NCBI GenBank assembly: GCA_964057225.1
Contig: OZ059895.1
Coordinates: forward strand, 12,524,001-12,588,000
Source of the DNA: Auanema rhodensis
Lineage: Eukaryota > Animalia > Nematoda
Direction: 5' to 3'
DNA: 64,000 nucleotides
How positions within the stretch are numbered: position 1 is the first letter of the stretch; each line of letters opens with the position of its first letter. Positions 23,958 to 52,760 of the stretch are shown here, piece after piece. The notes under the pieces were generated by a model, which made no database searches, had not been told where the DNA came from, and saw only the letters and a program-made list of their open reading frames with translations. The position numbers were made by a program, and so were the translations under genes.

Positions 23958-24296
23958 TGTTCTATACGTGTCTTATAAAGAAGGCGGTTGACAACGTCAA
24001 CCGACTTTTGGTTAATAGAATTCAATAAGAAACTAGACCTGAACTACTTTTTGTATAAATTCAATTATATTTGTTATTAATATTTTGCTATATAAACCCC
24101 TGAGAAAGCAACTAGGTTGGCTTTCTCATAACATGTAGTTTCATTTATTTGATTATTGTATTTTGCTTTTATAATTGTATTTCCATATTCTGAATAAACT
24201 TCTTTTTCTCTACTCTCTGTTACTTTTACAATGGCATTCACACTATTAAAGTCCATATGGTTACCTAGCCGGAACCCTAGGAACCAATATGGAACG
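23958..24296 (+). repeat. 5' LTR of gypsy element
   Basis: TGTTC...GGAACG; 3 mismatches seen versus 44344-44682; TATATAAA near 24088 and AATAAA near 24193. Confidence 0.96.
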
Positions 24297-24315
24297 TGGA
24301 GGTTCCACCGAGATT
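24297..24315 (+). promoter_or_regulatory. Primer binding site complementary to tRNA-Gln 3' end
   Basis: TGGAGGTTCCACCGAGATT is the reverse complement of AATCTCGGTGGAACCT-CCA, the animal tRNA-Gln 3' end; directly follows the LTR. Confidence 0.92.
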
Positions 24316-25429
24316 CGTCTATAAGGGACGAATCTCTATGGACCATTGCCGCTACTTTTTCTCACCTTTAAATTACTTTCTCTTTCTTTGAAATCCTTTT
24401 TACTCTAAAAATTTATCTTGATTTCATATCCAAAAATTCTAATTAAATTTTATATTTCAAACTTTCAAGTCAATTTTGTATCTAAAACAAAAACTCCAAT
24501 TTAATCTAGTAATTCGAATTTATCTCTAAATATCATTCTTCTGACATCATTTCTGATATATCTATTTGAAAAAAAAAATGTCTTATACATATTATCTATT
24601 ACAATCTATATTCCTACTTTATTCCTCTACTTTCCTGTATGTTTAAAGCATATAATGCATAAAAACTCTTTTTGGAACAAGCATATCAAAATATTTAACC
24701 ACGAATAATATTAAAAACTATCAATTCATGAAATATCTTAAAGACATTTATTCATATTGCAACACTTACCCATAAGTCATCTTGAAAACATCTTATCACA
24801 AGCTAAATTTTGAAAATATCTATTCATAAATCATTCTGAAAACATTGATTCATAAACAAAACCACTATTCTTGATATCTAACGCATTTTTATGAGAAAGC
24901 TCCGTAAGAAACAATACCAGACATTCTCGGGACATCGCGCGGAGGCGTACACTTTTTGATATAAGACGCGCAATCATTTGAAATTAACCCTTTTTGGTCC
25001 CATATGAGAATTAAAGAATATTTTGAAGTTGAGTGGTCCCACCTAGCAAGACCCAGGGGAACAGAAGTAACGTTAAAAGGGAACGTCTTTTGGGGGTTTG
25101 CTTAGGTAAGAGAAGTCTGGAAAAGTGAGTATGAGAAGCCTGTGTACCTGATCTTGTCCATGACTGAAAAGGAGCAATACACAGACCACTGTCTCATATC
25201 TCATGCCTCTTCGAGAGATAAGAACTTGGTCCTTTGCTAAAGGTCACACGTAGTTGCGGACTCGTGTATGAACCTGACCAGGCTATTCTCCAACTAGAGA
25301 CCCGCTGCAGGCTGGCCCCCTGACAGGAACAGGAGTCGCGCATACCAACCCCATATTGTCTCTTACGTTTTGTATAATATAAGCTCAGTCTTCGTTGGTT
25401 AATAATTTCCTTCCAGGAAACCAACAAAG

Positions 25430-27043
25430 ATGGCTGACGCAGCGAATCAAAACCCTCCGCCGGGAAATATTGCCCAAAATGCTACGAATAGCGCAGAGAA
25501 AACTCAGACAGTGGAAGCAGCACTGCATAGAAACCAAAGAAAAAGAGGACCACCGGATGCATTCCGACCAGATGCGAAATATCCGAAAACGAACGCGAAA
25601 TCAAAGAAATTACCCCCTATTCCGGGTACACCGCTAACTGCTAAGAAACTTTATACTACTGCTATTAAAACTACTAGGCATGCAATTAGCTTGAATAAGA
25701 ATAAAGCATCATCCAGTAAATCTACGCCCGAACGCTCTTCTCACTCTCCAAAAACAGTTGTTAATACCGGCACTAACACTTGTCCTCCAAATCACACTTC
25801 TCCTCAACGCCTTGTTCAAACCGCAAATGCGGAAATCCTCACCTCTCCTATTCCTAGAAACTCTCCCTCTTCCACTGATCAATCTTTGCACGGGCACTCT
25901 CTGTCTCCTGTCTCTTCTTCGTCAGACAATAACGTAAATTTGACTTCGAATGTTACAGAGCAGAGAAGTCGCCCTCAAATGGCAGAGCAGATGGAGCAAG
26001 ACAACTCTCCTATTGCAAGAGCCCACAACGTTTCTATTCGCCATCACAAACCTACGCTTTATGATGGATCGGTTCCATTCAACCTCTACATGCAAAGACT
26101 AGAAGGATATTTCGATGCCCTTCAAGTCCCTATTGCCGAGAGACTTTCCCATCTCTATCTACTTCTCGGAACGGATAGAGCCGCTGAAGCTCTTCGAACT
26201 ATACCAGCAGAAGACTTACGCCTGGGATGGAACCACGTCAAACGCATACTATCGGAGAAATTACAACCTCCAGAAAAGAGAGATGCAGCATTCACAAAAC
26301 TCACTCATTTGAAACAAGGAGAGCACAAAACGGTACAAAATTTCGCTCAACGCTGCAGAAACCTTGCCTACGAATCATGCAACATGGACTCGACAGCCGA
26401 TGAAAGAATACTACGAGTTTCATTCTTAGGAGGACTACGAAAGACTTTAAGAACACATGTCAATAACCGCAGCCCTATCACCTTTGATGCAGCCGTGACT
26501 ATTGCCGAAACTGTGGAAGCTGACGAGGATCCTTCGCTCTTGGTCAACAACTTGATTAAAGACGTGGAACAACTAGAGATTAATAACGGTCTCATAAACC
26601 ACATGAGAGCATCACAACAGGAGAAAATCTATGACGGATCACAAACACACCAATCAAGAACATTCTATGGAAATCAATCAAGACCACAACACCCACAAGA
26701 GCAATGGAATCAAAGAAGAGGAGGATACCGCTCACCAAGATACCAAGAGGATCGACAAAATAACCGTCACAACTTCAGACAGGATAACAGAAACAATGGA
26801 TATCAACGAGGATACAACAATTATCGTAGCCCCCAACGGTACGATAGATACAATGATCGATACAACAGCAGAGGAAACGATCGATATGATAGCAGAAGGA
26901 ACGATCGACAGGAGCACAGAGGAAACGACCGATACAACCGCGGAAACTGTCCTGATCGCGGATTTCAACAACGAAATCGCAGCACTTCATATGGACAGGC
27001 ACAGAGATCGCACAAGAAGCCCCAGCGTCCGTTTTCACGTTAA
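25430..27043 (+). CDS. gag: Gag portion of gypsy polyprotein; frameshifted at about 26996 by an 8-bp deletion
   Basis: Capsid-like YDGSVPFNLYMQRLEGYF and LKQGEHKTVQNFAQRC; R/N/D/Y-rich basic tail; in frame with env in the inverted copy. Confidence 0.88.
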   Translation: MADAANQNPPPGNIAQNATNSAEKTQTVEAALHRNQRKRGPPDAFRPDAKYPKTNAKSKKLPPIPGTPLTAKKLYTTAIKTTRHAISLNKNKASSSKSTPERSSHSPKTVVNTGTNTCPPNHTSPQRLVQTANAEILTSPIPRNSPSSTDQSLHGHSLSPVSSSSDNNVNLTSNVTEQRSRPQMAEQMEQDNSPIARAHNVSIRHHKPTLYDGSVPFNLYMQRLEGYFDALQVPIAERLSHLYLLLGTDRAAEALRTIPAEDLRLGWNHVKRILSEKLQPPEKRDAAFTKLTHLKQGEHKTVQNFAQRCRNLAYESCNMDSTADERILRVSFLGGLRKTLRTHVNNRSPITFDAAVTIAETVEADEDPSLLVNNLIKDVEQLEINNGLINHMRASQQEKIYDGSQTHQSRTFYGNQSRPQHPQEQWNQRRGGYRSPRYQEDRQNNRHNFRQDNRNNGYQRGYNNYRSPQRYDRYNDRYNSRGNDRYDSRRNDRQEHRGNDRYNRGNCPDRGFQQRNRSTSYGQAQRSHKKPQRPFSR

Positions 27044-30000
27044 CAAAGTAGAAAAGGAAACAGTCAAAACAAAGAAGACACTTCCGTTCATACCGCTATT
27101 CTTATCCGTCATCGCCCTATCTATGATACCTTGCCAGGCAGATAACACCTATCAACTCTGCATTGGCAAACGAGGAGGCATTTTCCTCGAACCACCTCGC
27201 CCAACCACCTGCTCAGACTATGCACACAAGGACGGAGTCGAGATAAAAACAGTGGAACTATTCGCAGAAAATATGAATTACAAGGAATGGGAAGCATGGA
27301 AATGCGCCAAGGAAATCTATAAAACGTGCGCCCACGACTTATTCTTCATCAGGGAAAATAACGTTACATTACTCCGAATAGAACCAGCCACTCCACAAGA
27401 ATGCCAAACAGCCATTCAAGAAAGACGACACATGGATAACGACCTCAATCGCGAAGCACCAGGACTATTCAAAGCCCCTATGCCATCTAGTACACAATCA
27501 AAATCGTTTTGGGCATCCTCTTGCACAACCAAGTCAAGATTCACCTTAGAAAGAGGAATGATGACTAGCCTACACGATGACACTATAATCTCCGACTTAT
27601 TCATCAACACTGAAGGATGCACTAAGCAACAAGGAGTATGCAACACCACCAACGCAGTTATCACATGGATCCCACCCAATGATCATCGAAATTGCGACTA
27701 CACGACATTAGGGAAATTCGAAGCACTAATCAACAATGATACTGTATTAATCTCGGAAATACAAGGAGCATTCATTCTCAAAAACAACACGCCAGACCCT
27801 ACAGCTACAAGATGTATGAATACAAGCATCTACTCAACTGATAGTGGTACGTACATTTCCATCAAGGACTTAAAAACACACCGACGTCAAAAGAGGATGG
27901 CACCCCAAGAATATCCTACGAGATTCTTCAATATCACTATCTACAAATCACTTCGCCTCACAGACAGTTCTACAGGTATACTACCTATGTACCAGACATA
28001 TCGAAATAGGAAAAGACTGGACAACGCTTATAACCTTATGGAATATCTCAAGACATCTAGCGTACACATAGGTTTCATCAAATTCCTTCAACTAGATTCA
28101 TCAAAACTGAAGAACCGACTCTTATGGCACAACTACACTGACATCAACATGGTTATCCTGCACACACTTGCAGAAGCTGAGATTCGACTTTCTACGAAAA
28201 TTGCCATCGAACACCTACTGCCATCAGAGATCACGGCAAAACTCAGCAAGCAAATCACTATCAGCGACTTTGCCACACGTCTACTCAACTACGAAGGCGA
28301 TTATCTCGACCGAGCAAGACAAATAGCAATTGAAATAGCTCACACACCTACCACTCTGGCAATAGGAGAGACTATTCCATCAATGGAGGACTATCTGTAC
28401 CAACTGTACCCACCCAGGATGACAAAACTGCCTAGATCACGCACTGACACACAGTTCTACACCCAGATGGATCAAATACAGGAGTTTCTTGATTATCTAG
28501 AGCAAAACAATCGTCTAACTCGGATATCAAAAGAACAAAGAGAGACAGAAAATAAGAAATGGGCAGATCTCACAAAACAGGCAAATTCGTCAGCAATCGT
28601 CTTTCCCAACTATACCCTCATCTTCAACGGACACGCACAAAATTATGGGTTGCCCAAAAATCAACCTACAATCAGACCTATCACGGATGAAGACAGCAAA
28701 TTATTTCAACAAGCATATCTTCAGCTCATTGAGTCACCTGGTGCTAGCCCCACAACGACCACTACTACAACCACCACAACCACTACATCGACTACCACAT
28801 CAACTGCCCCGACAACTACTACTCATCGGACGTCTCCACCTCAACCTACAACTACACCAAGGAGATATTACTATTACCAGAGTACAACAACTCCAGTAAC
28901 TCCACCACCACGTCCTCTCACCACCACATCCCGCAGGGAATCTACTAGGACACTTCCAACAACTCGGACTACTACAAAGCGAGCAACAACGACCCAACCG
29001 ATTGAGGAAATCAAATCTCACACTGGATCACAAGCACACCTCAATTTCCTACGAACACGAGCAGATATCATTCAAAAATACGACGATCAACTACGCCAAC
29101 AAGATACAAGGTCCCACCTCCAATACTCTACGTCAAAACTAGAGGAGGAAATCTTACAATCTTTCCAAATAACAAAGAAAAACGTATGCAGAATGCAAAA
29201 TAAGCAGCTACTTACCTGGTGGGCAATCCTGCAGATTAATCCGACTATAGGAATTCGCACTATGCTTCGTCGACAGGATATTTCAGCAAAGTTTGTTGGA
29301 GAACATCTTATTTACGTCATGCCATGCACCCCTGTACAAGTAACACGTGTATACTCGGATCACAAACGAGACGATAAATGTTACCTGGAGACACCGGTAG
29401 ACACGGAACATCACGGAAAACTCTTCATCACACCAGGATCAAGAGATTTAACACCATTTGCCCACATCATAGCATGCGATATGGCTACATCAGATCCCTA
29501 CAGAGAAAACAATCAATGGATGAAAGATAATTCAACATTGAATGTGACTAACTTCTCATTTTCGGATGAACTCACATCTGTAAAAATTGATCACATTAAG
29601 TTTAACAATTCCAACATATTTTCAAACCTCACGGAGTCAACATTTCCAATGGCACTGGCTATTTCCTACGGCTCTAGCCTAGCATCTTTACAAGCAACTA
29701 TGCCAGGAAAATTGAAACCAGTCTTCAAACACTCTGGACTATCCAGTCTGAATCCAATAGGAATTATAGGAGGAACAGTTGGAACGACATTAATGATAGC
29801 AGATAACATATCAAACAACGCGGAGAAACAAATCACAAATTTCTTTGGATACATAGGAGAATCAATTACAGCATGGATACTAAGGACACTAGCAATTATT
29901 GGAGCAATCATCGTCACAATAGGACTCATAACTGTTACCATTTGGGCATTAAAAATATATGCATGTACCACAATGATACCAATCAATCAAATTACATTCA

Positions 30001-30515
30001 ACGAACAAGACGAAGAACCAAGAGGAGAGGACAAACAATTCGAATTAAAACCATTAGTCACTTCTCAGCAAGAGAAATTATATACAAGAACCTCTCGATA
30101 TGATCCTGACGCCCCACTATCAGATAATGACTTTTTCGCCTATCTACCACGGTATGCTATGAAAGAATCAAGGATTAACTACATCGGAGGATCACGACTA
30201 CCTTTCGTACCTCTCTCCATTCACAATCAGATCTTTACTGCTTTATGGGACACAGGAGCTTCTATATCATACATGAAGGAAAATACATTTCAACAACTAC
30301 CGGCAGCAACAATGGTTATGGAAAAGACAACAGCCATTGTAGCAAACAAATCACGATTTTCTTTCCTGGGCTACACAAGAATCCCAATTATTATCGGGAA
30401 GACAGAAATCGAGCACAAAGTACTGATTTCTGCCAACAACCACTGCCCAGCACCAATATTATTAGGAATAGATTTTGTAGTGGTCGTAAAGATGTATTTA
30501 TTCCTATTTTGTTGA
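26997..30515 (+). CDS. env: Env (gB-like class III glycoprotein, about 27081-29970) fused to aspartic protease (about 30190-30473); terminated by fold-back insertion
   Basis: Signal-like LPFIPLFLSVIALSMIPCQA; Cys-rich ectodomain with N-glycosylation sequons; furin RRQKR at 27882-27896; TM WILRTLAIIGAIIVTIGLITVTIW; protease ALWDTGAS and ILLGIDF. Confidence 0.85.
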   Translation, partial: RHRDRTRSPSVRFHVNKVEKETVKTKKTLPFIPLFLSVIALSMIPCQADNTYQLCIGKRGGIFLEPPRPTTCSDYAHKDGVEIKTVELFAENMNYKEWEAWKCAKEIYKTCAHDLFFIRENNVTLLRIEPATPQECQTAIQERRHMDNDLNREAPGLFKAPMPSSTQSKSFWASSCTTKSRFTLERGMMTSLHDDTIISDLFINTEGCTKQQGVCNTTNAVITWIPPNDHRNCDYTTLGKFEALINNDTVLISEIQGAFILKNNTPDPTATRCMNTSIYSTDSGTYISIKDLKTHRRQKRMAPQEYPTRFFNITIYKSLRLTDSSTGILPMYQTYRNRKRLDNAYNLMEYLKTSSVHIGFIKFLQLDSSKLKNRLLWHNYTDINMVILHTLAEAEIRLSTKIAIEHLLPSEITAKLSKQITISDFATRLLNYEGDYLDRARQIAIEIAHTPTTLAIGETIPSMEDYLYQLYPPRMTKLPRSRTDTQFYTQMDQIQEFLDYLEQNNRLTRISKEQRETENKKWADLTKQANSSAIVFPNYTLIFNGHAQNYGLPKNQPTIRPITDEDSKLFQQAYLQLIESPGASPTTTTTTTTTTTTSTTTSTAPTTTTHRTSPPQPTTTPRRYYYYQSTTTPVTPPPRPLTTTSRRESTRTLPTTRTTTKRATTTQPIEEIKSHTGSQAHLNFLRTRADIIQKYDDQLRQQDTRSHLQYSTSKLEEEILQSFQITKKNVCRMQNKQLLTWWAILQINPTIGIRTMLRRQDISAKFVGEHLIYVMPCTPVQVTRVYSDHKRDDKCYLETPVDTEHHGKLFITPGSRDLTPFAHIIACDMATSDPYRENNQWMKDNSTLNVTNFSFSDELTSVKIDHIKFNNSNIFSNLTESTFPMALAISYGSSLASLQATMPGKLKPVFKHSGLSSLNPIGIIGGTVGTTLMIADNISNNAEKQITNFFGYIGESITAWILRTLAIIGAIIVTIGLITVTIWALKIYACTTMIPINQITFNEQDEEPRGEDKQFELKPLVTSQQEKLYTRTSRYDPDAPLSDNDFFAYLPRYAMKESRINYIGGSRLPFVPLSIHNQIFTALWDTGASISYMKENTFQQLPAATMVMEKTTAIVANKSRFSFLGYTRIPIIIGKTEIEHKVLISANNHCPAPILLGIDFVVVVKMYLFLFC

Positions 30516-30576
30516 GAGCTTCATAGAAGCTCTCAACAAAATAGGAATAAATACATCTTTACGACCACTACAAAAT
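30472..30576. repeat. Perfect inverted repeat, 51-bp arms, 3-nt loop
   Basis: 30472-30522 is the exact reverse complement of 30526-30576. Confidence 0.97.
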
Positions 30577-33500
30577 TCACTACTAATTGGAGACACAATA
30601 GTACCTTTAGCACAAGACTACGCGCCATGGACTGAGAACCACACGATAGCACACGTCGTAAGCCTGGAAACTAAACAGTTCTACCCAGGAGAAACCAGAT
30701 CGCTTACATTGGAAGTAGACGATCCCGCCTCTTACGAACAAGCTTTCATTAGAAGCTCACAGCGGACAGGAAAAATGAGTTTCGCCCCTACTACTTTCAC
30801 CCCAACGGGATATGGAGTTCAGATATTTGCTACAAATATCTCTCCAGACACAATTGTAGTACAGACAAATCAAGGCATTGGAACAGCTTACGCTATCCCG
30901 AAAAACACGGAGGAGCAAAAAGGACAATATGTGCCACCAGAAGCAAGATGGGAAGATCAACTACCATACTTCCCAGAGGACTTTATAAAAGACCTCGATG
31001 TAACAAACACCATCTTTACTCAGCTAGAGAGACAACAGTTAAAGAAAATAGTGCTCAGAAACAAGGAAGCTTTCTTAAACGAGGATCGCAATATTGGACT
31101 TTTCAAAGGACCAGTGGAACATAGCATCCCGATCATCGAAGGAAAAGTTCCATCTTTCAAGATCACGTACAGAATACCTCTATCACAACAAGAAGAAGTA
31201 GAAAAACAAGTGGAGGAAATGTTAGAACAAGGAATAATTGAGCCATCTTTTTCTATGACTACCAGTCCCGTAATATTGGTCAAGAAAAAGGATAAAACGT
31301 ACAGATTTGTGACTGATTTTCGAGCACTCAACGCAATAACGCAAAAACAAATCTACGTTATATCTAACATTCAAGACATTTTGGACCTAGCAGCCGGAGC
31401 GCGTATCCTCAGTAACTTTGATCTAGTATCTGGATTCTTTCAAATCCCTCTTAGATCAGAAGATAGACACCTCACCGCATTCACTACTACGAGCGGAACT
31501 TATCAATACTGCAGAATGCCGATGGGACTCTGCGGAGCTCCACACACATTCCAAAATGCTGTACGATATTTACAACAACACGTACGATGCAAGCTCTTCG
31601 TCTATCTCGACGATCTACTTCTCATATCGGAATCAACGACGAAACATTTACAAGATATCGACGAAGTACTGAACGCATCAGCAGAGCTAGGATTAAAAAT
31701 CAAGCTTAAGAAATGTACCTTTGGACAACAAGAAGTCAAATTCCTAGGATTCATTGTTGGACACGAAGGAATAAAACCAGACCCTCAGAAAGTAAAAGCA
31801 ATCCAAGATTATCCAAGACCGAAATCAATAACAGGAGTTCGAGCATTTATGGGAGTTGTGAACTACTTTCGCAGATTTATTAGAAATGCCGCAGGCATTG
31901 CGTCACCACTTTATGAGCTCACGAAAAAGGATACAGCTTTCAAATGGGGAGATGCAGAAGAACAAGCATTTCAACAACTTAAACAGATACTCTGTCAAGC
32001 TCCTGTACTACAAGCACCTATAGCAAAACGACCTTACGTCATTGAAAGCGACGGAAGTATAATTGCAGTTGGCGCAGTACTATTACAGGCTAAAGACGAC
32101 AAGGAACCACTTCACCCAATTGCATTTGCCAGCCGAAAACTGAACAAAGCCGAACGGAATTACCCGCCAATTGAAATCGAAGCCCTAGCACTCACTTTCG
32201 CAGTACATCAATTTCGGACTTACATACTAGGCACACCAATAAGAATCATCACCGATCACAGGCCTCTTACTAGCCTCATGACAAGAAAAGATCTTATTGG
32301 CAGGCTAGCAAAATTTCAAATCGTATTACAAGAATACGACATCGAGATAGTGTATCGCCCAGGACGTCTTAACAGCGTCTGTGATGCACTTTCACGATAT
32401 TTTGAAGACGAAGTCAACGAAGCCAAGGAAAGAAAGAAGAAACCAAAAGAAACTCCTACACACAAAATCTCGACTATTTCAACTATTACGGACCTTCGGA
32501 CCATTCAAGGCAATACAGAATGGATCATGGAAACAAAAGAAAAGATTCGGAACAAAACAGCAGGAAGGCAACTAATGGATCGATATATCGTTGTGAACGA
32601 CGCTCTGTATGCAAAACCCAAAACAGCTTTACAAACTCCGCGAGCCATTCTACCAAACGATCCAGCAATCACAATACCAATTATAGAAAAATTTCATAAA
32701 GACCCAATTCTCGGAGCGCATCTAGGAATCAATAAGACTCAAGATTCCATTTTGCGGCGGTATACTTGGACCGGAATACAGGACGACATCACAAAATACG
32801 TCAACAGATGTCTCGACTGTGCAAAGAGGAAAAACAACCCACACGAAGCCACTGTCGAGCCAATGAGAAATTTTCCAACAGTAACCCATCCATGGGAAAG
32901 GGTTCACATGGATATACTTGGACCACTACCTCGGACCGCAAATGATAAAAGATACATTTTATCAATACAAGACGCTTTTTCAAAATGGATCATAGCGATA
33001 CCGCTCATTCGTCAAACATCAGAAGAAATAATAGCGGCTATTAAAACACACTTGTTTTATGTTTTTGGACCCCCCAAGAAAATCATCACAGACAATGGAG
33101 CAAATTTTGTTTCAAAGGAATTCAAAAACATGTGTGATGATCTTGGATCGGAACATCACACAACTATGCCATACTACAAAAACGCAAATGGTCAAGTGGA
33201 ACGGCTACACAGAACACTGGAAGAAGCATTAACTTCCTACGTTAATGACGATCAAGACAATTGGGATATCATTCTACCAAATATTGTTTTTACGATGAAT
33301 CGACTACCAAACGCTACTACTCGCACACCACCCTACGATTGTCTGTTTGGACAAACAGCTCGGTTACCAATAGATAAGGACTTAGAAACCCCAGGAGCCA
33401 CAATCAAGAACGCCCCGGACTTACACGAGAAGATTCATGAAAGGATAGAGTTGAATAATGAAAGAATGAAGAAGAAATACGACAAAAATCACAGGACGCA

Positions 33501-34308
33501 GGAAAGAGAGATCTTCGTGGAAAATAGAGCACTCGTCAAGCGAGCAAAGCCAGCAAATAAATTACAAACAACAAGCGATGGACCATATATAATCAAGGAA
33601 ATAAACGGAAATAACGTAATATTAGCAGATAGCGAAGGGAATACGATTATAGCTCACAAGAATAATATAAGATACTTTCCACCCGACGATAACAACGTCG
33701 AAGAAAGCGAGCACAACAGAAACGACTCCGCACCCGCCATTTATAGCGACGGCTCACAGCAGGATACGGAAAATACGCGCGCTAAAAATAGCACGCCCAC
33801 CACAACATCAATCTCTGATTCAGAAATCGACAACGAGGACGAATTCTACGAACAAAGCCGACCTTCAATAACACCACAAGAAACAATAGCACCACAGGAA
33901 ATTACGCGGGAAACACAACAGGACAATTATCAAGCAGAAACCGGACCGAATACGGCAGACAAGTCAGCTACGGACAAGGACGAAAACAACTTATTTCAAC
34001 AACTTGTCGATAAAATTGGAGAAGAAACAAGGCAAGAGCTCTATGAAGAAAGACGTAAAGAGATACCCACAACCAAAAGATGGAGCTCAGCCCTCAAGTT
34101 GGCACTTGGAATAGAAGACAAAAATCCTATAACCGCTCCAAAACCATTCCACGTACCAATAAGGTACAACAGCGTGATACCCACCTTAGAGTCTAAAAAC
34201 AGGCTCACACGCTCTCAGATACCTGATGCTCATTTCGATTCTCCAAAAACACCGGTTGTACGAAAGAAACGACCTTCAACAGTGATTGGAGCAACAACAA
34301 CCATTTAA
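30520..34308 (+). CDS. pol: Pol: RT - RNase H - integrase with long C-terminal extension (frame open from 30520)
   Basis: SPVILVKKKD, DFRALN, MPMGL, YLDD; DGS...AFASRKL...EALA, TDHRPL; H-H-C-C zinc finger, MDILGP, TDNG, NGQVER, GPY. Confidence 0.96.
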   Translation, partial: FIEALNKIGINTSLRPLQNSLLIGDTIVPLAQDYAPWTENHTIAHVVSLETKQFYPGETRSLTLEVDDPASYEQAFIRSSQRTGKMSFAPTTFTPTGYGVQIFATNISPDTIVVQTNQGIGTAYAIPKNTEEQKGQYVPPEARWEDQLPYFPEDFIKDLDVTNTIFTQLERQQLKKIVLRNKEAFLNEDRNIGLFKGPVEHSIPIIEGKVPSFKITYRIPLSQQEEVEKQVEEMLEQGIIEPSFSMTTSPVILVKKKDKTYRFVTDFRALNAITQKQIYVISNIQDILDLAAGARILSNFDLVSGFFQIPLRSEDRHLTAFTTTSGTYQYCRMPMGLCGAPHTFQNAVRYLQQHVRCKLFVYLDDLLLISESTTKHLQDIDEVLNASAELGLKIKLKKCTFGQQEVKFLGFIVGHEGIKPDPQKVKAIQDYPRPKSITGVRAFMGVVNYFRRFIRNAAGIASPLYELTKKDTAFKWGDAEEQAFQQLKQILCQAPVLQAPIAKRPYVIESDGSIIAVGAVLLQAKDDKEPLHPIAFASRKLNKAERNYPPIEIEALALTFAVHQFRTYILGTPIRIITDHRPLTSLMTRKDLIGRLAKFQIVLQEYDIEIVYRPGRLNSVCDALSRYFEDEVNEAKERKKKPKETPTHKISTISTITDLRTIQGNTEWIMETKEKIRNKTAGRQLMDRYIVVNDALYAKPKTALQTPRAILPNDPAITIPIIEKFHKDPILGAHLGINKTQDSILRRYTWTGIQDDITKYVNRCLDCAKRKNNPHEATVEPMRNFPTVTHPWERVHMDILGPLPRTANDKRYILSIQDAFSKWIIAIPLIRQTSEEIIAAIKTHLFYVFGPPKKIITDNGANFVSKEFKNMCDDLGSEHHTTMPYYKNANGQVERLHRTLEEALTSYVNDDQDNWDIILPNIVFTMNRLPNATTRTPPYDCLFGQTARLPIDKDLETPGATIKNAPDLHEKIHERIELNNERMKKKYDKNHRTQEREIFVENRALVKRAKPANKLQTTSDGPYIIKEINGNNVILADSEGNTIIAHKNNIRYFPPDDNNVEESEHNRNDSAPAIYSDGSQQDTENTRAKNSTPTTTSISDSEIDNEDEFYEQSRPSITPQETIAPQEITRETQQDNYQAETGPNTADKSATDKDENNLFQQLVDKIGEETRQELYEERRKEIPTTKRWSSALKLALGIEDKNPITAPKPFHVPIRYNSVIPTLESKNRLTRSQIPDAHFDSPKTPVVRKKRPSTVIGATTTI

Positions 34309-34528
34309 TCAAAAATAGAAACTTTTCGGGAAAATAACTTTATTCATTAATTTTTTTTTATTAATTTATAATAATTCATTCTATCTGCTACCCAAACAAC
34401 AAAAACAATGTTTTCCCCAATCATCAATCTTAATATCTATGTATCACAAAATATATACTTACCTATTTGTTTCACCCTATATAAGCTCAAAATTCACCTC
34501 AAGCAGAAAAACTCCCAGCACCACAAGA

Positions 34529-34885
34529 ATGGCACTCGTCTTCCCTCCACCAGCCTGCGAGACACCTATCGCGATGATCAAGGAAAAGTGGATCAAGATT
34601 CATTCGCTCCAGATAGAACTACAACAACTGGAGACAACAAACAACAGGACTAAAAAGATAAGAATTCTCCAATCATTTTCGGAGAATTTAGCCAGAGTTA
34701 CTCTATTAATAGAGACTCTGGAAAGGTTACAATGTTCATGTAACAATGATGAAGAAGAGATGGCCAAAATGGCGCAAAACTGGTCCGAGGCCACTGCCCG
34801 CACCAAAGCCACCATCAACAAACTACGCGAAGATCTAGGCTATCCAGCCTCCAAAAATGTAGCTAGCGCGGATCTCATCCCAAGA
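34529..34885 (+). pseudogene. Truncated first copy of accessory ORF2
   Basis: Matches 43479 onward until cut by the inversion junction at 34884-34885. Confidence 0.8.
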
Positions 34886-37800
34886 CGATGATTGCTCCAA
34901 TAATTGCTAGTGTCCTTAGTATCCATGCTGTAATTGATTCTCCTATGTATCCAAAGAAATTTGTGATTTGTTTCTCCGCGTTGTTTGATATGTTATCTGC
35001 TATCATTAATGTCGTTCCAACTGTTCCTCCTATAATTCCTATTGGATTCAGACTGGATAGTCCAGAGTTTTTGAAGACTGGTTTCAATTTTCCTGGCATA
35101 GTTGCTTGTAAAGATGCTAGGCTAGAGCCGTAGGAAATAGCCAGTGCCATTGGAAATGTTGACTCCGTGAGGTTTGAAAATATGTTGGAATTGTTAAACT
35201 TAATGTGATCAATTTTTACAGATGTGAGTTCATCCGAAAATGAGAAGTTAGTCACATTCAATGTTGAATTATCTTTCATCCATTGATTGTTTTCTCTGTA
35301 GGGATCTGATGTAGCCATATCGCATGCTATGATGTGGGCAAATGGTGTTAAATCTCTTGATCCTGGTGTGATGAAGAGTTTTCCGTGATGTTCCGTGTCT
35401 ACCGGTGTCTCCAGGTAACATTTATCGTCTCGTTTGTGATCCGAGTATACACGTGTTACTTGTACAGGGGTGCATGGCATGACGTAAATAAGATGTTCTC
35501 CAACAAACTTTGCTGAAATATCCTGTCGACGAAGCATAGTGCGAATTCCTATAGTCGGATTAATCTGCAGGATTGCCCACCAGGTAAGTAGCTGCTTATT
35601 TTGCATTCTGCATACGTTTTTCTTTGTTATTTGGAAAGATTGTAAGATTTCCTCCTCTAGTTTTGACGTAGAGTATTGGAGGTGGGACCTTGTATCTTGT
35701 TGGCGTAGTTGATCGTCGTATTTTTGAATGATATCTGCTCGTGTTCGTAGGAAATTGAGGTGTGCTTGTGATCCAGTGTGAGATTTGATTTCCTCAATCG
35801 GTTGGGTCGTTGTTGCTCGCTTTGTAGTAGTCCGAGTTGTTGGAAGTGTCCTAGTAGATTCCCTGCGGGATGTGGTGGTGAGAGGACGTGGTGGTGGAGT
35901 TACTGGAGTTGTTGTACTCTGGTAATAGTAATATCTCCTTGGTGTAGTTGTAGGTTGAGGTGGAGACGTCCGATGAGTAGTAGTTGTCGGGGCAGTTGAT
36001 GTGGTAGTCGATGTAGTGGTTGTGGTGGTTGTAGTAGTGGTCGTTGTGGGGCTAGCACCAGGTGACTCAATGAGCTGAAGATATGCTTGTTGAAATAATT
36101 TGCTGTCTTCATCCGTGATAGGTCTGATTGTAGGTTGATTTTTGGGCAACCCATAATTTTGTGCGTGTCCGTTGAAGATGAGGGTATAGTTGGGAAAGAC
36201 GATTGCTGACGAATTTGCCTGTTTTGTGAGATCTGCCCATTTCTTATTTTCTGTCTCTCTTTGTTCTTTTGATATCCGAGTTAGACGATTGTTTTGCTCT
36301 AGATAATCAAGAAACTCCTGTATTTGATCCATCTGGGTGTAGAACTGTGTGTCAGTGCGTGATCTAGGCAGTTTTGTCATCCTGGGTGGGTACAGTTGGT
36401 ACAGATAGTCCTCCATTGATGGAATAGTCTCTCCTATTGCCAGAGTGGTAGGTGTGTGAGCTATTTCAATTGCTATTTGTCTTGCTCGGTCGAGATAATC
36501 GCCTTCGTAGTTGAGTAGACGTGTGGCAAAGTCGCTGATAGTGATTTGCTTGCTGAGTTTTGCCGTGATCTCTGATGGCAGTAGGTGTTCGATGGCAATT
36601 TTCGTAGAAAGTCGAATCTCAGCTTCTGCAAGTGTGTGCAGGATAACCATGTTGATGTCAGTGTAGTTGTGCCATAAGAGTCGGTTCTTCAGTTTTGATG
36701 AATCTAGTTGAAGGAATTTGATGAAACCTATGTGTACGCTAGATGTCTTGAGATATTCCATAAGGTTATAAGCGTTGTCCAGTCTTTTCCTATTTCGATA
36801 TGTCTGGTACATAGGTAGTATACCTGTAGAACTGTCTGTGAGGCGAAGTGATTTGTAGATAGTGATATTGAAGAATCTCGTAGGATATTCTTGGGGTGCC
36901 ATCCTCTTTTGACGTCGGTGTGTTTTTAAGTCCTTGATGGAAATGTACGTACCACTATCAGTTGAGTAGATGCTTGTATTCATACATCTTGTAGCTGTAG
37001 GGTCTGGCGTGTTGTTTTTGAGAATGAATGCTCCTTGTATTTCCGAGATTAATACAGTATCATTGTTGATTAGTGCTTCGAATTTCCCTAATGTCGTGTA
37101 GTCGCAATTTCGATGATCATTGGGTGGGATCCATGTGATAACTGCGTTGGTGGTGTTGCATACTCCTTGTTGCTTAGTGCATCCTTCAGTGTTGATGAAT
37201 AAGTCGGAGATTATAGTGTCATCGTGTAGGCTAGTCATCATTCCTCTTTCTAAGGTGAATCTTGACTTGGTTGTGCAAGAGGATGCCCAAAACGATTTTG
37301 ATTGTGTACTAGATGGCATAGGGGCTTTGAATAGTCCTGGTGCTTCGCGATTGAGGTCGTTATCCATGTGTCGTCTTTCTTGAATGGCTGTTTGGCATTC
37401 TTGTGGAGTGGCTGGTTCTATTCGGAGTAATGTAACGTTATTTTCCCTGATGAAGAATAAGTCGTGGGCGCACGTTTTATAGATTTCCTTGGCGCATTTC
37501 CATGCTTCCCATTCCTTGTAATTCATAATTTCTGCGAATAGTTCCACTGTTTTTATCTCGACTCCGTCCTTGTGTGCATAGTCTGAGCAGGTGGTTGGGC
37601 GAGGTGGTTCGAGGAAAATGCCTCCTCGTTTGCCAATGCAGAGTTGATAGGTGTTATCTGCCTGGCAAGGTATCATAGATAGGGCGATGACGGATAAGAA
37701 TAGCGGTATGAACGGAAGTGTCTTCTTTGTTTTGACTGTTTCCTTTTCTACTTTGTTAACGTGAAAACGGACGCTGGGGCTTCTTGTGCGATCTCTGTGC

Positions 37801-39377
37801 CTGTTATGTGGTCCATATGAAGTGCTGCGATTTCGTTGTTGAAATCCGCGATCAGGACAGTTTCCGCGGTTGTATCGGTCGTTTCCTCTGTGCTCCTGTC
37901 GATCGTTCCTTCTGCTATCATATCGATCGTTTCCTCTGCTGTTGTATCGATCATTGTATCTATCGTACCGTTGGGGGCTACGATAATTGTTGTATCCTCG
38001 TTGATATCCATTGTTTCTGTTATCCTGTCTGAAGTTGTGACGGTTATTTTGTCGATCCTCTTGGTATCTTGGTGAGCGGTATCCTCCTCTTCTTTGATTC
38101 CATTGCTCTTGTGGGTGTTGTGGTCTTGATTGATTTCCATAGAATGTTCTTGATTGGTGTGTTTGTGATCCGTCATAGATTTTCTCCTGTTGTGATGCTC
38201 TCATGTGGTTTATGAGACCGTTATTAATCTCTAGTTGTTCCACGTCTTTAATCAAGTTGTTGACCAAGAGCGAAGGATCCTCGTCAGCTTCCACAGTTTC
38301 GGCAATAGTCACGGCTGCATCAAAGGTGATAGGGCTGCGGTTATTGACATGTGTTCTTAAAGTCTTTCGTAGTCCTCCTAAGAATGAAACTCGTAGTATT
38401 CTTTCATCGGCTGTCGAGTCCATGTTGCATGATTCGTAGGCAAGGTTTCTGCAGCGTTGAGCGAAATTTTGTACCGTTTTGTGCTCTCCTTGTTTCAAAT
38501 GAGTGAGTTTTGTGAATGCTGCATCTCTCTTTTCTGGAGGTTGTAATTTCTCCGATAGTATGCGTTTGACGTGGTTCCATCCCAGGCGTAAGTCTTCTGC
38601 TGGTATAGTTCGAAGAGCTTCAGCGGCTCTATCCGTTCCGAGAAGTAGATAGAGATGGGAAAGTCTCTCGGCAATAGGGACTTGAAGGGCATCGAAATAT
38701 CCTTCTAGTCTTTGCATGTAGAGGTTGAATGGAACCGATCCATCATAAAGCGTAGGTTTGTGATGGCGAATAGAAACGTTGTGGGCTCTTGCAATAGGAG
38801 AGTTGTCTTGCTCCATCTGCTCTGCCATTTGAGGGCGACTTCTCTGCTCTGTAACATTCGAAGTCAAATTTACGTTATTGTCTGACGAAGAAGAGACAGG
38901 AGACAGAGAGTGCCCGTGCAAAGATTGATCAGTGGAAGAGGGAGAGTTTCTAGGAATAGGAGAGGTGAGGATTTCCGCATTTGCGGTTTGAACAAGGCGT
39001 TGAGGAGAAGTGTGATTTGGAGGACAAGTGTTAGTGCCGGTATTAACAACTGTTTTTGGAGAGTGAGAAGAGCGTTCGGGCGTAGATTTACTGGATGATG
39101 CTTTATTCTTATTCAAGCTAATTGCATGCCTAGTAGTTTTAATAGCAGTAGTATAAAGTTTCTTAGCAGTTAGCGGTGTACCCGGAATAGGGGGTAATTT
39201 CTTTGATTTCGCGTTCGTTTTCGGATATTTCGCATCTGGTCGGAATGCATCCGGTGGTCCTCTTTTTCTTTGGTTTCTATGCAGTGCTGCTTCCACTGTC
39301 TGAGTTTTCTCTGCGCTATTCGTAGCATTTTGGGCAATATTTCCCGGCGGAGGGTTTTGATTCGCTGCGTCAGCCAT
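34875..39377 (-). CDS. Uninterrupted Gag-Env fusion ORF (1500 aa), truncated within the Env TM helix
   Basis: Single frame through ...STSYGPHNRHRDRTRSPSVRFHVNKV...LPFIPLFL... Confidence 0.9.
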   Translation of the reverse strand: MADAANQNPPPGNIAQNATNSAEKTQTVEAALHRNQRKRGPPDAFRPDAKYPKTNAKSKKLPPIPGTPLTAKKLYTTAIKTTRHAISLNKNKASSSKSTPERSSHSPKTVVNTGTNTCPPNHTSPQRLVQTANAEILTSPIPRNSPSSTDQSLHGHSLSPVSSSSDNNVNLTSNVTEQRSRPQMAEQMEQDNSPIARAHNVSIRHHKPTLYDGSVPFNLYMQRLEGYFDALQVPIAERLSHLYLLLGTDRAAEALRTIPAEDLRLGWNHVKRILSEKLQPPEKRDAAFTKLTHLKQGEHKTVQNFAQRCRNLAYESCNMDSTADERILRVSFLGGLRKTLRTHVNNRSPITFDAAVTIAETVEADEDPSLLVNNLIKDVEQLEINNGLINHMRASQQEKIYDGSQTHQSRTFYGNQSRPQHPQEQWNQRRGGYRSPRYQEDRQNNRHNFRQDNRNNGYQRGYNNYRSPQRYDRYNDRYNSRGNDRYDSRRNDRQEHRGNDRYNRGNCPDRGFQQRNRSTSYGPHNRHRDRTRSPSVRFHVNKVEKETVKTKKTLPFIPLFLSVIALSMIPCQADNTYQLCIGKRGGIFLEPPRPTTCSDYAHKDGVEIKTVELFAEIMNYKEWEAWKCAKEIYKTCAHDLFFIRENNVTLLRIEPATPQECQTAIQERRHMDNDLNREAPGLFKAPMPSSTQSKSFWASSCTTKSRFTLERGMMTSLHDDTIISDLFINTEGCTKQQGVCNTTNAVITWIPPNDHRNCDYTTLGKFEALINNDTVLISEIQGAFILKNNTPDPTATRCMNTSIYSTDSGTYISIKDLKTHRRQKRMAPQEYPTRFFNITIYKSLRLTDSSTGILPMYQTYRNRKRLDNAYNLMEYLKTSSVHIGFIKFLQLDSSKLKNRLLWHNYTDINMVILHTLAEAEIRLSTKIAIEHLLPSEITAKLSKQITISDFATRLLNYEGDYLDRARQIAIEIAHTPTTLAIGETIPSMEDYLYQLYPPRMTKLPRSRTDTQFYTQMDQIQEFLDYLEQNNRLTRISKEQRETENKKWADLTKQANSSAIVFPNYTLIFNGHAQNYGLPKNQPTIRPITDEDSKLFQQAYLQLIESPGASPTTTTTTTTTTTTSTTTSTAPTTTTHRTSPPQPTTTPRRYYYYQSTTTPVTPPPRPLTTTSRRESTRTLPTTRTTTKRATTTQPIEEIKSHTGSQAHLNFLRTRADIIQKYDDQLRQQDTRSHLQYSTSKLEEEILQSFQITKKNVCRMQNKQLLTWWAILQINPTIGIRTMLRRQDISAKFVGEHLIYVMPCTPVQVTRVYSDHKRDDKCYLETPVDTEHHGKLFITPGSRDLTPFAHIIACDMATSDPYRENNQWMKDNSTLNVTNFSFSDELTSVKIDHIKFNNSNIFSNLTESTFPMALAISYGSSLASLQATMPGKLKPVFKNSGLSSLNPIGIIGGTVGTTLMIADNISNNAEKQITNFFGYIGESITAWILRTLAIIGAIIVLG

Positions 39378-39990
39378 CTTTGTTGGTTTCCTGGAAGGAA
39401 ATTATTAACCAACGAAGACTGAGCTTATATTATACAAAACGTAAGAGACAATATGGGGTTGGTATGCGCGACTCCTGTTCCTGTCAGGGGGCCAGCCTGC
39501 AGCGGGTCTCTAGTTGGAGAATAGCCTGGTCAGGTTCATACACGAGTCCGCAACTACGTGTGACCTTTAGCAAAGGACCAAGTTCTTATCTCTCGAAGAG
39601 GCATGAGATATGAGACAGTGGTCTGTGTATTGCTCCTTTTCAGTCATGGACAAGATCAGGTACACAGGCTTCTCATACTCACTTTTCCAGACTTCTCTTA
39701 CCTAAGCAAACCCCCAAAAGACGTTCCCTTTTAACGTTACTTCTGTTCCCCTGGGTCTTGCTAGGTGGGACCACTCAACTTCAAAATATTCTTTAATTCT
39801 CATATGGGACCAAAAAGGGTTAATTTCAAATGATTGCGCGTCTTATATCAAAAAGTGTACGCCTCCGCGCGATGTCCCGAGAATGTCTGGTATTGTTTCT
39901 TACGGGGCTTTCTCATAAAAATGCGTTAGATATCAAGAATAGTGGTTTTGTTTATGAATCAATGTTTTCAGAATGATTTATGAATAGATA
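34884..39990 (-). repeat. Inverted duplicate of 24817-29915 (leader, gag, env)
   Basis: Reverse complement with a few SNPs and 8 extra bp (5107 versus 5099 bp). Confidence 0.97.
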
Positions 39991-39994
39991 ACAA

Positions 39995-42900
39995 ATGTTT
40001 GGTCGTAAGCGAAAAAATCTGATATTCAACGAGGATCGCAATATTGGACTTTTCAAAGGACCAGTGGAACATAGCATCCCGATCATCGAAGGAAAAGTTC
40101 CATCTTTCAAGATCACGTACAGAATACCTCTATCACAACAAGAAGAAGTAGAAAAACAAGTGGAGGAAATGTTAGAACAAGGAATAATTGAGCCATCTTT
40201 TTCTATGACTACCAGTCCCGTAATATTGGTCAAGAAAAAGGATAAAACGTACAGATTTGTGACTGATTTTCGAGCACTCAACGCAATAACGCAAAAACAA
40301 ATCTACGTTATATCTAACATTCAAGACATTTTGGACCTAGCAGCCAGAGCGCGTATCCTCAGTAACTTTGATCTAGTATCTGGATTCTTTCAAATCCCTC
40401 TTAGATCAGAAGATAGACACCTCACCGCATTCACTACTACGAGCGGAACTTATCAATACTGCAGAATGCCGATGGGACTCTGCGGAGCTCCACACACATT
40501 CCAAAATGCTGTACGATATTTACAACAACACGTACGATGCAAGCTCTTCGTCTATCTCGACGATCTACTTCTCATATCGGAATCAACGACGAAACATTTA
40601 CAAGATATCGACGAAGTACTGAACGCATCAGCAGAGCTAGGATTAAAAATCAAGCTTAAGAAATGTACCTTTGGACAACAAGAAGTCAAATTCCTAGGAT
40701 TCATTGTTGGACACGAAGGAATAAAACCAGACCCTCAGAAAGTAAAAGCAATCCAAGATTATCCAAGACCGAAATCAATAACAGGAGTTCGAGCATTTAT
40801 GGGAGTTGTGAACTACTTTCGCAGATTTATTAGAAATGCCGCAGGCATTGCGTCACCACTTTATGAGCTCACGAAAAAGGATACAGCTTTCAAATGGGGA
40901 GATGCAGAAGAACAAGCATTTCAACAACTTAAACAGATACTCTGTCAAGCTCCTGTACTACAAGCACCTATAGCAAAACGACCTTACGTCATTGAAAGCG
41001 ACGGAAGTATAATTGCAGTTGGCGCAGTACTATTACAGGCTAAAGACGACAAGGAACCACTTCACCCAATTGCATTTGCCAGCCGAAAACTGAACAAAGC
41101 CGAACGGAATTACCCGCCAATTGAAATCGAAGCCCTAGCACTCACTTTCGCAGTACATCAATTTAGGACTTACATACTAGGCACACCAATAAGAATCATC
41201 ACCGATCACAGGCCTCTTACTAGCCTCATGACAAGAAAAGATCTTATTGGCAGGCTAGCAAAATTTCAAATCGTATTACAAGAATACGACATCGAGATAG
41301 TGTATCGCCCAGGACGTCTTAACAGCGTCTGTGATGCACTTTCACGATATTTTGAAGACGAAGTCAACGAAGCCAAGGAAAGAAAGAAGAAACCAAAAGA
41401 AACTCCTACACACAAAATCTCGACTATTTCAACTATTACGGACCTTCGGACCATTCAAGGCAATACAGAATGGATCATGGAAACAAAAGAAAAGATTCGG
41501 AACAAAACAGCAGGAAGGCAACTAATGGATCGATATATCGTTGTGAACGACGCTCTGTATGCAAAACCCAAAACAGCTTTACAAACTCCGCGAGCCATTC
41601 TACCAAACGATCCAGCAATCACAATACCAATTATAGAAAAATTTCATAGAGACCCAATTCTCGGAGCGCATCTAGGAATCAATAAGACTCAAGATTCCAT
41701 TTTGCGGCGGTATACTTGGACCGGAATACAGGACGACATCACAAAATACGTCAACAGATGTCTCGACTGTGCAAAGAGGAAAAACAACCCACACGAAGCC
41801 ACTGTCGAGCCAATGAGAAATTTTCCAACAGTAACCCATCCATGGGAAAGGGTTCACATGGATATACTTGGACCACTACCTCGGACCGCAAATGATAAAA
41901 GATACATTTTATCAATACAAGACGCTTTTTCAAAATGGATCATAGCGATACCGCTCATTCGTCAAACATCAGAAGAAATAATAGCGGCTATTAAAACACA
42001 CTTGTTTTATGTTTTTGGACCCCCCAAGAAAATCATCACAGACAATGGAGCAAATTTTGTTTCAAAGGAATTCAAAAACATGTGTGATGATCTTGGATCG
42101 GAACATCACACAACTATGCCATACTACAAAAACGCAAATGGTCAAGTGGAACGGCTACACAGAACACTGGAAGAAGCATTAACTTCCTACGTTAATGACG
42201 ATCAAGACAATTGGGATATCATTCTACCAAATATTGTTTTTACGATGAATCGACTACCAAACGCTACTACTCGCACACCACCCTACGATTGTCTGTTTGG
42301 ACAAACAGCTCGGTTACCAATAGATAAGGACTTAGAAACCCCAGGAGCCACAATCAAGAACGCCCCGGACTTACACGAGAAGATTCATGAAAGGATAGAG
42401 TTGAATAATGAAAGAATGAAGAAGAAATACGACAAAAATCACAGGACGCAGGAAAGAGAGATCTTCGTGGAAAATAGAGCACTCGTCAAGCGAGCAAAGC
42501 CAGCAAATAAATTACAAACAACAAGCGATGGACCATATATAATCAAGGAAATAAACGGAAATAACGTAATATTAGCAGATAGCGAAGGGAATACGATTAT
42601 AGCTCACAAGAATAATATAAGATACTTTCCACCCGACGATAACAACGTCGAAGAAAGCGAGCACAACAGAAACGACTCCGCACCCGCCATTTATAGCGAC
42701 GGCTCACAGCAGGATACGGAAAATACGCGCGCTAAAAATAGCACGCCCACCACAACATCAATCTCTGATTCAGAAATCGACAACGAGGACGAATTCTACG
42801 AACAAAGCCGACCTTCAATAACACCACAAGAAACAATAGCACCACAGGAAATTACGCGGGAAACACAACAGGACAATTATCAAGCAGAAACCGGACCGAA

Positions 42901-43258
42901 TACGGCAGACAAGTCAGCTACGGACAAGGACGAAAACAACTTATTTCAACAACTTGTCGATAAAATTGGAGAAGAAACAAGGCAAGAGCTCTATGAAGAA
43001 AGACGTAAAGAGATACCCACAACCAAAAGATGGAGCTCAGCCCTCAAGTTGGCACTTGGAATAGAAGACAAAAATCCTATAACCGCTCCAAAACCATTCC
43101 ACGTACCAATAAGGTACAACAGCGTGATACCCACCTTAGAGTCTAAAAACAGGCTCACACGCTCTCAGATACCTGATGCTCATTTCGATTCTCCAAAAAC
43201 ACCGGTTGTACGAAAGAAACGACCTTCAACAGTGATTGGAGCAACAACAACCATTTAA
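39995..43258 (+). CDS. pol: Second RT-RNase H-integrase copy with junction-derived N-terminus
   Basis: 40028 onward equals 31078 onward (offset 8950); first 11 codons come from 5S-array filler. Confidence 0.9.
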   Translation: MFGRKRKNLIFNEDRNIGLFKGPVEHSIPIIEGKVPSFKITYRIPLSQQEEVEKQVEEMLEQGIIEPSFSMTTSPVILVKKKDKTYRFVTDFRALNAITQKQIYVISNIQDILDLAARARILSNFDLVSGFFQIPLRSEDRHLTAFTTTSGTYQYCRMPMGLCGAPHTFQNAVRYLQQHVRCKLFVYLDDLLLISESTTKHLQDIDEVLNASAELGLKIKLKKCTFGQQEVKFLGFIVGHEGIKPDPQKVKAIQDYPRPKSITGVRAFMGVVNYFRRFIRNAAGIASPLYELTKKDTAFKWGDAEEQAFQQLKQILCQAPVLQAPIAKRPYVIESDGSIIAVGAVLLQAKDDKEPLHPIAFASRKLNKAERNYPPIEIEALALTFAVHQFRTYILGTPIRIITDHRPLTSLMTRKDLIGRLAKFQIVLQEYDIEIVYRPGRLNSVCDALSRYFEDEVNEAKERKKKPKETPTHKISTISTITDLRTIQGNTEWIMETKEKIRNKTAGRQLMDRYIVVNDALYAKPKTALQTPRAILPNDPAITIPIIEKFHRDPILGAHLGINKTQDSILRRYTWTGIQDDITKYVNRCLDCAKRKNNPHEATVEPMRNFPTVTHPWERVHMDILGPLPRTANDKRYILSIQDAFSKWIIAIPLIRQTSEEIIAAIKTHLFYVFGPPKKIITDNGANFVSKEFKNMCDDLGSEHHTTMPYYKNANGQVERLHRTLEEALTSYVNDDQDNWDIILPNIVFTMNRLPNATTRTPPYDCLFGQTARLPIDKDLETPGATIKNAPDLHEKIHERIELNNERMKKKYDKNHRTQEREIFVENRALVKRAKPANKLQTTSDGPYIIKEINGNNVILADSEGNTIIAHKNNIRYFPPDDNNVEESEHNRNDSAPAIYSDGSQQDTENTRAKNSTPTTTSISDSEIDNEDEFYEQSRPSITPQETIAPQEITRETQQDNYQAETGPNTADKSATDKDENNLFQQLVDKIGEETRQELYEERRKEIPTTKRWSSALKLALGIEDKNPITAPKPFHVPIRYNSVIPTLESKNRLTRSQIPDAHFDSPKTPVVRKKRPSTVIGATTTI

Positions 43259-43478
43259 TCAAAAATAGAAACTTTTCGGGAAAATAACTTTATTCATTAA
43301 TTTTTTTTTATTAATTTATAATAATTCATTCTATCTGCTACCCAAACAACAAAAACAATGTTTTCCCCAATCATCAATCTTAATATCTATGTATCACAAA
43401 ATATATACTTACCTATTTGTTTCACCCTATATAAGCTCAAAATTCACCTCAAGCAGAAAAACTCCCAGCACCACAAGA

Positions 43479-44343: not shown

Positions 44344-44682
44344 TGTTCCATACGTGTCTTATAAAGAAGGCGGTTGACAACGTCAACCGACTTTTGGTTA
44401 ATAGAATTCAATAAGAAACTAGACCTGAACTACTTTTTGTATAAATTTAATTATATTTGTAATTAATATTTTGCTATATAAACCCCTGAGAAAGCAACTA
44501 GGTTGGCTTTCTCATAACATGTAGTTTCATTTATTTGATTATTGTATTTTGCTTTTATAATTGTATTTCCATATTCTGAATAAACTTCTTTTTCTCTACT
44601 CTCTGTTACTTTTACAATGGCATTCACACTATTAAAGTCCATATGGTTACCTAGCCGGAACCCTAGGAACCAATATGGAACG
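44344..44682 (+). repeat. 3' LTR of gypsy element
   Basis: TGTTCCATA...TATGGAACG; followed by CTAA and resumed 5S spacer. Confidence 0.96.
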
Positions 44683-44751
44683 CTAACATGAAATTGGAAA
44701 AAAAACAATAACGAGGATAAGTATGTAAATCATTGAATATCAGGTATTTTC

Positions 44752-44848
44752 GCTTACGACCATACCACGTTGAAAGTACGCCATCCCGTCCGATCTGGCA
44801 AGTCAAGCAACGTTGGGCCCGGTTAGTACTTGGATCGGAGACGGCTTG
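44752..44848 (+). pseudogene. 5S rRNA gene interrupted at nt 95-97 by BEL/Pao LTR
   Basis: Exact 5S nt 1-97, then LTR sequence; TG is shared by gene and LTR terminus. Confidence 0.95.
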
Positions 44849-52759: not shown

Positions 52760-52760
52760 A

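Follow-up and report, generated by a model that had tools for sequence, protein, structure and literature searches.

The window analysed here, 64,000 nucleotides of contig OZ059895.1 of the nematode Auanema rhodensis (positions 12,524,001 to 12,588,000), contains a Ty3/gypsy retroelement in which an envelope glycoprotein (Env) is encoded between Gag and the protease. The whole element occupies 23958–44682 on the forward strand and is bounded by a pair of 339-bp long terminal repeats (LTRs), at 23958–24296 and 44344–44682, with 3 differences between them. The 5′ LTR begins with TG, and both repeats end in CG (24295–24296 and 44681–44682), where CA is usual. A 4-bp target-site duplication, CTAA, lies at the outer sides of both LTRs, and a primer-binding site occupies the first bases after the 5′ LTR (24297–24308). 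The reverse complement of this site is identical to the Gln_UUG_CUG site listed for Clat_errantivirus_4 and Ctro_errantivirus_1 in supplementary file 1 of PMC13524379. No clear purine tract was found ahead of the 3′ LTR. The LTR pair, the Gln-type primer site, the target-site duplication and the order of Pol domains with gypsy profiles place the element in the Ty3/gypsy group (Metaviridae). The element is young; its copy in the window, inserted in a spacer of 5S ribosomal DNA (rDNA), has been damaged and rearranged.

The element encodes, in order, Gag, a signal helix, a predicted class III (gB-like) Env, a membrane anchor, protease, reverse transcriptase (RT), RNase H and integrase. In the first, forward-strand copy, gag spans 25430–27043, with a capsid domain (PF03732) at about 26171–26440 and an Arg/Asn/Tyr-rich, nucleocapsid-like end that has no zinc knuckle; a frameshift interrupts it near 27.0 kb. 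The internal signal-like helix (27075–27143), which is recognised by hydrophobicity only and has the motif HVNKV ahead of it, leads into the Env ectodomain (27141–29858) and the membrane anchor (29859–29969), with PINQI behind. The aspartic protease, with the signature LWDTGAS, lies at 30201–30482, with RINYI ahead and its end disrupted by a fold-back at 30472–30576. RT (YLDD) and RNase H follow at 31279–32337, and integrase at 32677–34308, with an H2C2 zinc domain, an rve core, an acidic tail and a stop codon at 34306–34308.

This order had been proposed in an earlier note on the same DNA, and the reading frames and Pfam domains bear it out. An inverted copy of 24817–29915, 99.8% identical, lies at 34884–39990 on the reverse strand and carries Gag and Env in frame. 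Its stop-free frame (39401–34875, 1508 residues from stop to stop, with a methionine at 39377) holds Gag (PF03732, residues 248–337), a hydrophobic helix (residues 552–574) and then the glycoprotein, which matches PF24664 (E = 4e-16) and, weakly, PF00606 (E = 9e-07), before being truncated within the membrane anchor at the inversion junction. The claim that Gag runs without a stop into the helix and the glycoprotein therefore stands, as does its counterpart, that the anchor is in frame with the DTG protease: a stop-free frame of the forward copy (26607–30515) takes the same glycoprotein through the anchor (residues 1085–1121) to the protease (PF13975, residues 1202–1290), whose LWDTGAS sits about 95 residues past the anchor. 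RT, RNase H and integrase (H2C2 + rve) occupy 30490–34308. The Pol profiles, PF13975, PF00078, PF17917/PF17919, PF17921 and PF00665 in that order, are of the gypsy type, and the Pfam scan found none of the BEL families PF05380, PF03564 and PF18701 in the element.

Relatives carry the same arrangement in unbroken chains. An Env search recovered a 2943-residue polyprotein of Aphelenchus avenae in which Env stands after Gag and ahead of the protease; when the Env of protein P0001 was used in a word-indexed search, P0001 itself was the sole match. Cluster representatives scanned with HMMER, without a profile, yielded 250 matches; 150 of these were taken on. With P0001 added to make 151, Env lies ahead of a Pol domain in 46, three of them resting on short RNase H matches, and behind it in four; three of those four were scanned with Pfam, and all three are BEL/Pao. 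The RT–RNase H span, searched among long proteins, gave 43 matches, the nearest being Caenorhabditis proteins at 60–63% identity that carry PF24664, and the near relatives with names are all nematode proteins. Gag, both Env halves, RT, RNase H and integrase follow one another in a single chain in 21 of the 192 proteins fetched, from several genera, and Pfam agrees with the order in the relatives scanned. These chains support the single-polyprotein design put forward in the earlier note, and the order from Gag to integrase is likely translated as one polyprotein. P0009, which looks internally shortened, was dropped from the topology and motif counts, leaving 20 full-order relatives.

In a quick RT tree of 50 rows, from which rows without the full RT–RNase H span were excluded, the window RT falls in a seven-row clade (Shimodaira–Hasegawa-like approximate likelihood ratio test 99) that includes proteins of C. 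nigoni, C. remanei and C. auriculariae. Five of the other rows are Caenorhabditis, and all members are env-before-pol. Further rows of this kind fall elsewhere in the tree, and more than one clade therefore has the order. Variations on the layout were also seen. Two or three protease-like domains stand behind the anchor in P0001 (residues 1234–1820; three Pfam stretches), P0011 and P0178, and P0036 has an RRM domain (500–555) between Gag and Env. The gB-like Env family also occurs behind integrase, in the BEL/Pao polyproteins P0054, P0063, P0066, P0097, P0103 and P0123 and in the gypsy-type P0187 and P0188.

The layout itself is already described. Chary and Hayashi (eLife 2026, PMC13524379) report errantiviruses of Nematoda, Bryozoa and Platyhelminthes that have a gB-type Env and a GAG-ENV-POL order and are not monophyletic; supplementary file 1 holds 36 nematode elements, and the flipped ENV/POL order in nematode endogenous retroviruses is credited there to Sacco et al. 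2022. The earlier note had not recognised the order from described elements, a claim that falls, on a condition the note itself had set, with this catalogue of nematode, bryozoan and flatworm cases, and the element is a further member of the nematode GAG-ENV-POL group. It shares with that group the domain order, a gB-type Env between signal peptide and anchor, a gypsy Pol and LTRs. Its nearest counterparts there are Caenorhabditis elements with a Gln primer site, and that of Clat_4 and Ctro_1 is identical to its own. By eye, the cysteine pattern of Env domains I–II resembles the Nematoda_C1 rows of the supplement. Its RT, however, is only 60–65% identical to the nearest relatives, and the Env insert, at about 400 residues compared with 37–417 in relatives, is longer than most. 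Three short Env motifs of the window element were not found in the seven supplementary files, a weak negative given that rows are gapped and cells of more than 400 characters are partly covered; its family may be unlisted in these supplements. The portions of the paper examined do not discuss a single open reading frame (ORF), topology or cleavage sites. Because the layout has been published, the value of the element as a discovery is low.

A second point of comparison is NERV (Nematoda endogenous retrovirus; Sacco et al. 2022, J Gen Virol 103:1739), which is reported to have a continuous gag-env-pro-pol ORF, an Env like Nyamiviridae glycoproteins and, in some members, an extra small ORF. The window element, for its part, has a nyamivirus G fold match and a small extra ORF. 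Atlas virus and the nematode belpaoviruses likewise carry Env within one polyprotein (Gag-Pol-Env, 2828 residues, no stops; PMC9094657, in part). Unlike the window element, Atlas virus has a BEL/Pao Pol, Env in last place, a class II phlebovirus-like fusogen and one topology change; the BEL/Pao neighbour at 44849–60540 in the window is of this Atlas-like kind. Cer1, a Ty3/gypsy element of C. elegans, similarly has no stop between gag and pol, but the portions of PMC10309623 consulted describe no gB-type Env between its Gag and protease, and its export protein CERV comes from a spliced mRNA.

The glycoprotein is related to class III fusogens at the level of both profile and predicted structure. 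An Env profile built from 55 natural Env sequences and searched against PDB has matches in herpes gB (best E = 1e-16) and, less strongly, in rhabdovirus G (E = 2e-05). The unbroken ectodomain of the inverted copy, modelled as a monomer only, gave a predicted local distance difference test score (pLDDT) of 68.8 and a predicted template modelling score (pTM) of 0.49. The N-terminal part and the crown of the model are rich in strands, and its central helix is 69 residues long. With this model Foldseek retrieved herpes gB (E = 2e-09) and rhabdo-like and nyamivirus G proteins (E = 8e-17 to 2e-12). VIA-align ranked gB at the top, in its postfusion form (Z 10.8, root mean square deviation 42.5) and its prefusion form 9q9l (Z 9.3, root mean square deviation 6.6, 372 aligned), followed by Chandipura G and thogotovirus GP. 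We predict from these matches that Env has a class III (gB/rhabdovirus-G-like) fold. A furin-type site, RQKR, occurs at about 27885–27896. Behind it lies a helical insert of 277 residues (27909–28739), and a mucin-like, Thr/Ser/Pro-rich stretch extends over 28707–29006. The helical insert is clearly common to only 2 of the 192 proteins and has no family match, its Atlas matches lying under 0.9; modelled alone and without an alignment, it reached a pLDDT of 37.

The earlier note had proposed that the polyprotein threads the membrane twice, and as a prediction this is supported by the relatives, 19 of the 20 having a signal-like helix ahead of Env and 19 of the 20 an anchor behind it. In 14 of the 20, the two Env halves have a furin-type site between them. 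The note had also suggested that HVNKV, PINQI, RINYI and KISTI, all four of which are present at domain borders in the window, are protease sites. We scored the motif [VI]N.[VIL] up to 45 residues ahead of the signal helix and at the other borders. It occurs in 10/20 relatives before the signal helix, 10/20 behind the anchor, 10/20 behind RNase H and 6/20 before the protease, compared with 16 of 288 luminal windows and 4 of 179 RT–RNase H windows, which lends support to the suggestion; the binomial values overstate the enrichment, since the relatives are kin. The protease sites of Ty1, in which hydrophilic residues at P1 and P1′ are flanked by Val/Ile at P2 and P2′ (PMC6952103, in part), have the same shape as the [VI]-N-x-[VI] border motifs of the element. 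We found no papers testing topology or cleavage for the GAG-ENV-POL group, within a search whose scope stopped short of subscription papers and bioRxiv supplements.

With fold and topology as predicted, we infer a course of cleavage, budding, fusion and spread. Gag would be made in the cytosol, after which the internal signal helix would enter the translocon of the endoplasmic reticulum (ER) and signal peptidase would free the N-terminus of Env. The Env ectodomain would be glycosylated in the lumen and cut at RQKR by a furin-type protease, while the anchor would stop transfer and Pol would be made in the cytosol. Gag and Pol would thus be membrane-bound beside Env at first, gathering the three at the budding membrane until their release at maturation, and the element protease would likely cut the [VI]-N-x-[VI] sites before the signal helix, behind the anchor, before the protease and between RNase H and integrase. 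Through Env, particles would likely fuse with further cells, for example in spreading from soma to germline. Of the tether between Pol and Env that the earlier note had envisaged, an initial membrane attachment is kept in this proposal. A lasting tether is weakened, because the anchor is closely followed by a motif in the window element and in 10/20 relatives; Pol is probably cut free, which would make the tether temporary. A more ambitious reading joins these parts into a flavivirus-like precursor that would span the ER membrane twice and hold Gag and Pol beside Env until [VI]-N-x-[VI] cuts on both cytosolic sides, with the insert and mucin stalk as a receptor-binding or trigger module that would spare Env gH/gL-like partners. 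We think this combination rather unlikely; if true, it would amount to an assembly line of flavivirus type, which has not yet been worked out for any retroelement.

The window copy has itself been rearranged. Besides the inverted copy, a second direct copy of 31075–34885, covering RT to integrase, lies at 40025–43835 (4 differences in 3811 bp), so that the interior of the element is a direct-inverted-direct triplication with 1 to 4 differences per arm. Two bases are shared at its first junction and 34 unmatched bases stand at the second (39990–40025). The triplication looks like the result of template switching during replication or repair, or like an assembly product. The forward copy is broken twice, by the frameshift near 27.0 kb and by the fold-back (inverted repeat 30472–30576) at the protease end. 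The stretch occurs in eleven sequencing runs from three studies, and we compared contigs of four runs covering all three studies. The protease break is missing from the contigs of all four and the 27.0-kb break from those of three, and at 34885 the contigs of all four pass into normal downstream sequence. The lesions therefore appear private to the copy in the window. Single contigs of run X1 cover the Gag/Env border (record 3) and the Env/protease region (record 4). Another X1 contig departs from gag at 26901 and continues into sequence of the small 3′ ORF; it is likely an internally deleted, Gag-only derivative in that sample.

The differences between copies also bear on whether the family is maintained. 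Forty of 83 single-letter differences were listed, and 29 of these are changes in the coding frame: 18 are silent, 11 alter a residue and none creates a stop. Without selection, about a quarter of coding changes are expected to be silent. The family therefore looks constrained, consistent with apparent purifying selection.

Taken as a whole, the element is very probably a young nematode Ty3/gypsy retroelement that belongs with the GAG-ENV-POL elements already described. It is likely expressed in the form of a single polyprotein, and we predict that it is an endogenous virus with an envelope. Several observations pull the other way. The window has no intact copy, and no single frame was seen there that takes protease into RT or reaches the roughly 2946 residues given in the earlier note; the continuity of protease and RT rests on the one-chain relatives (21/192) and on contigs of other runs that are without the breaks of the window copy, and none of the contigs listed from the four runs spans the whole element. 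One chain is not always one ORF, since some relatives are NCBI gene models and may be spliced, although several full-order relatives, from metagenome contigs of 10–12 kb, were probably called simply as ORFs. The TM-scores of the whole model to gB are low (0.15–0.25), as is the pTM of 0.49, values that we attribute to the long insert and to domain packing. The border motif is missing at each border in about half of the relatives, which are not independent counts. Finally, the RT tree is a quick one, built without named reference clades or published reference sequences.

The alternative that survives best retains the domain order and differs in expression alone: there would be one ORF, but spliced or prematurely ended mRNAs would supply Gag, Env and Pol unequally, with the full polyprotein a minor product and without the forced 1:1:1 stoichiometry that the earlier note had envisaged. 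Capsid assembly generally needs Gag in excess. A precedent exists in Cer1, a single-ORF gypsy element that makes a second mRNA through conventional splice sites (PMC10309623, in part). In the window, however, neither a splice signal nor a poly(A) signal came to light at the Gag/Env border; a scan of the first copy and the 3′ end for TT[TC][TC]CAG gave two sites, both of them elsewhere. The protease-site motifs flanking Env fit polyprotein processing. We regard unequal expression as a credible competitor, if a somewhat improbable one.

Less likely still, and on balance improbable, is an element that moves only within cells, its Env being either a remnant unable to fuse membranes or a protein that acts as a membrane tether or blocks receptors. 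Transmission by gB-type Env is stated to be unknown in the parts of PMC13524379 used here, where herpes gB is also said to need partner glycoproteins, and the window Env has a long insert and a mucin stretch that are absent from the viral fusogens among its fold matches. Against this, the signal helix, the cysteines, the furin-type site and the anchor are kept across relatives at 16–40% identity, and local confidence in the predicted fold is good. A one-off nested insertion of the glycoprotein, or an order produced by rearrangement or misassembly, might be suspected in a copy that has an inverted triplication and a fold-back and lies within a repeat array difficult to assemble, but we give it next to no credence and consider it ruled out by the same order in one chain in 21/192 proteins from several genera, by the independent X1 contigs across the Gag/Env border and the Env/protease region, by the lack of repeat ends flanking Env and by the published order (PMC13524379, in part).

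A polyprotein with an internal fusogen, the reading we prefer, makes the element a young example, apparently under purifying selection, of a group whose biology is experimentally little explored. It raises the questions of how a fusogen is inserted and processed in the middle of a Gag-Pol precursor, by what route Gag comes to be in excess, and how gB-type fusion proceeds without the herpes partners. The border motifs predict specific cleavage positions, and in the helical insert the element has a candidate module for entry.

Between integrase and the 3′ LTR, the element contains an extra ORF for 211 residues (43479–44114, forward strand), which in the first copy is cut short at 34885. Its product looks helical; Pfam has no match to it, and none of the 192 fetched proteins matches it at E below 0.5. 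A TATA-like sequence, TATATAAG, lies at 43427–43434, about 45 bp upstream, and the ORF may have its own promoter.

The surrounding DNA is a 5S rDNA array, with 34 matches to Rfam RF00001 in the window. It occupies 1–23957, 44683–44848 and about 60540–64000, with units of about 529 and 399 bp, and it reverses orientation across the two retroelements. The insertion of the gypsy element is in a 5S spacer, at a point 66 bp upstream of a 5S gene; 42 other units of the array have this site empty. Targeting of 5S rDNA by the element was considered and not adopted, because the array fills the region and a single insertion in it shows nothing; the matches listed in a literature search included no nematode case of such targeting. 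The second retroelement, at 44849–60540 on the reverse strand, is a BEL/Pao element with PF05380, PF03564 and PF18701 all present and a phlebovirus-like G2 behind integrase. It disrupts a 5S rRNA gene at about 44848 and consists of two tandem 7.8-kb copies (99.9%), with the same frameshift within the glycoprotein of both.

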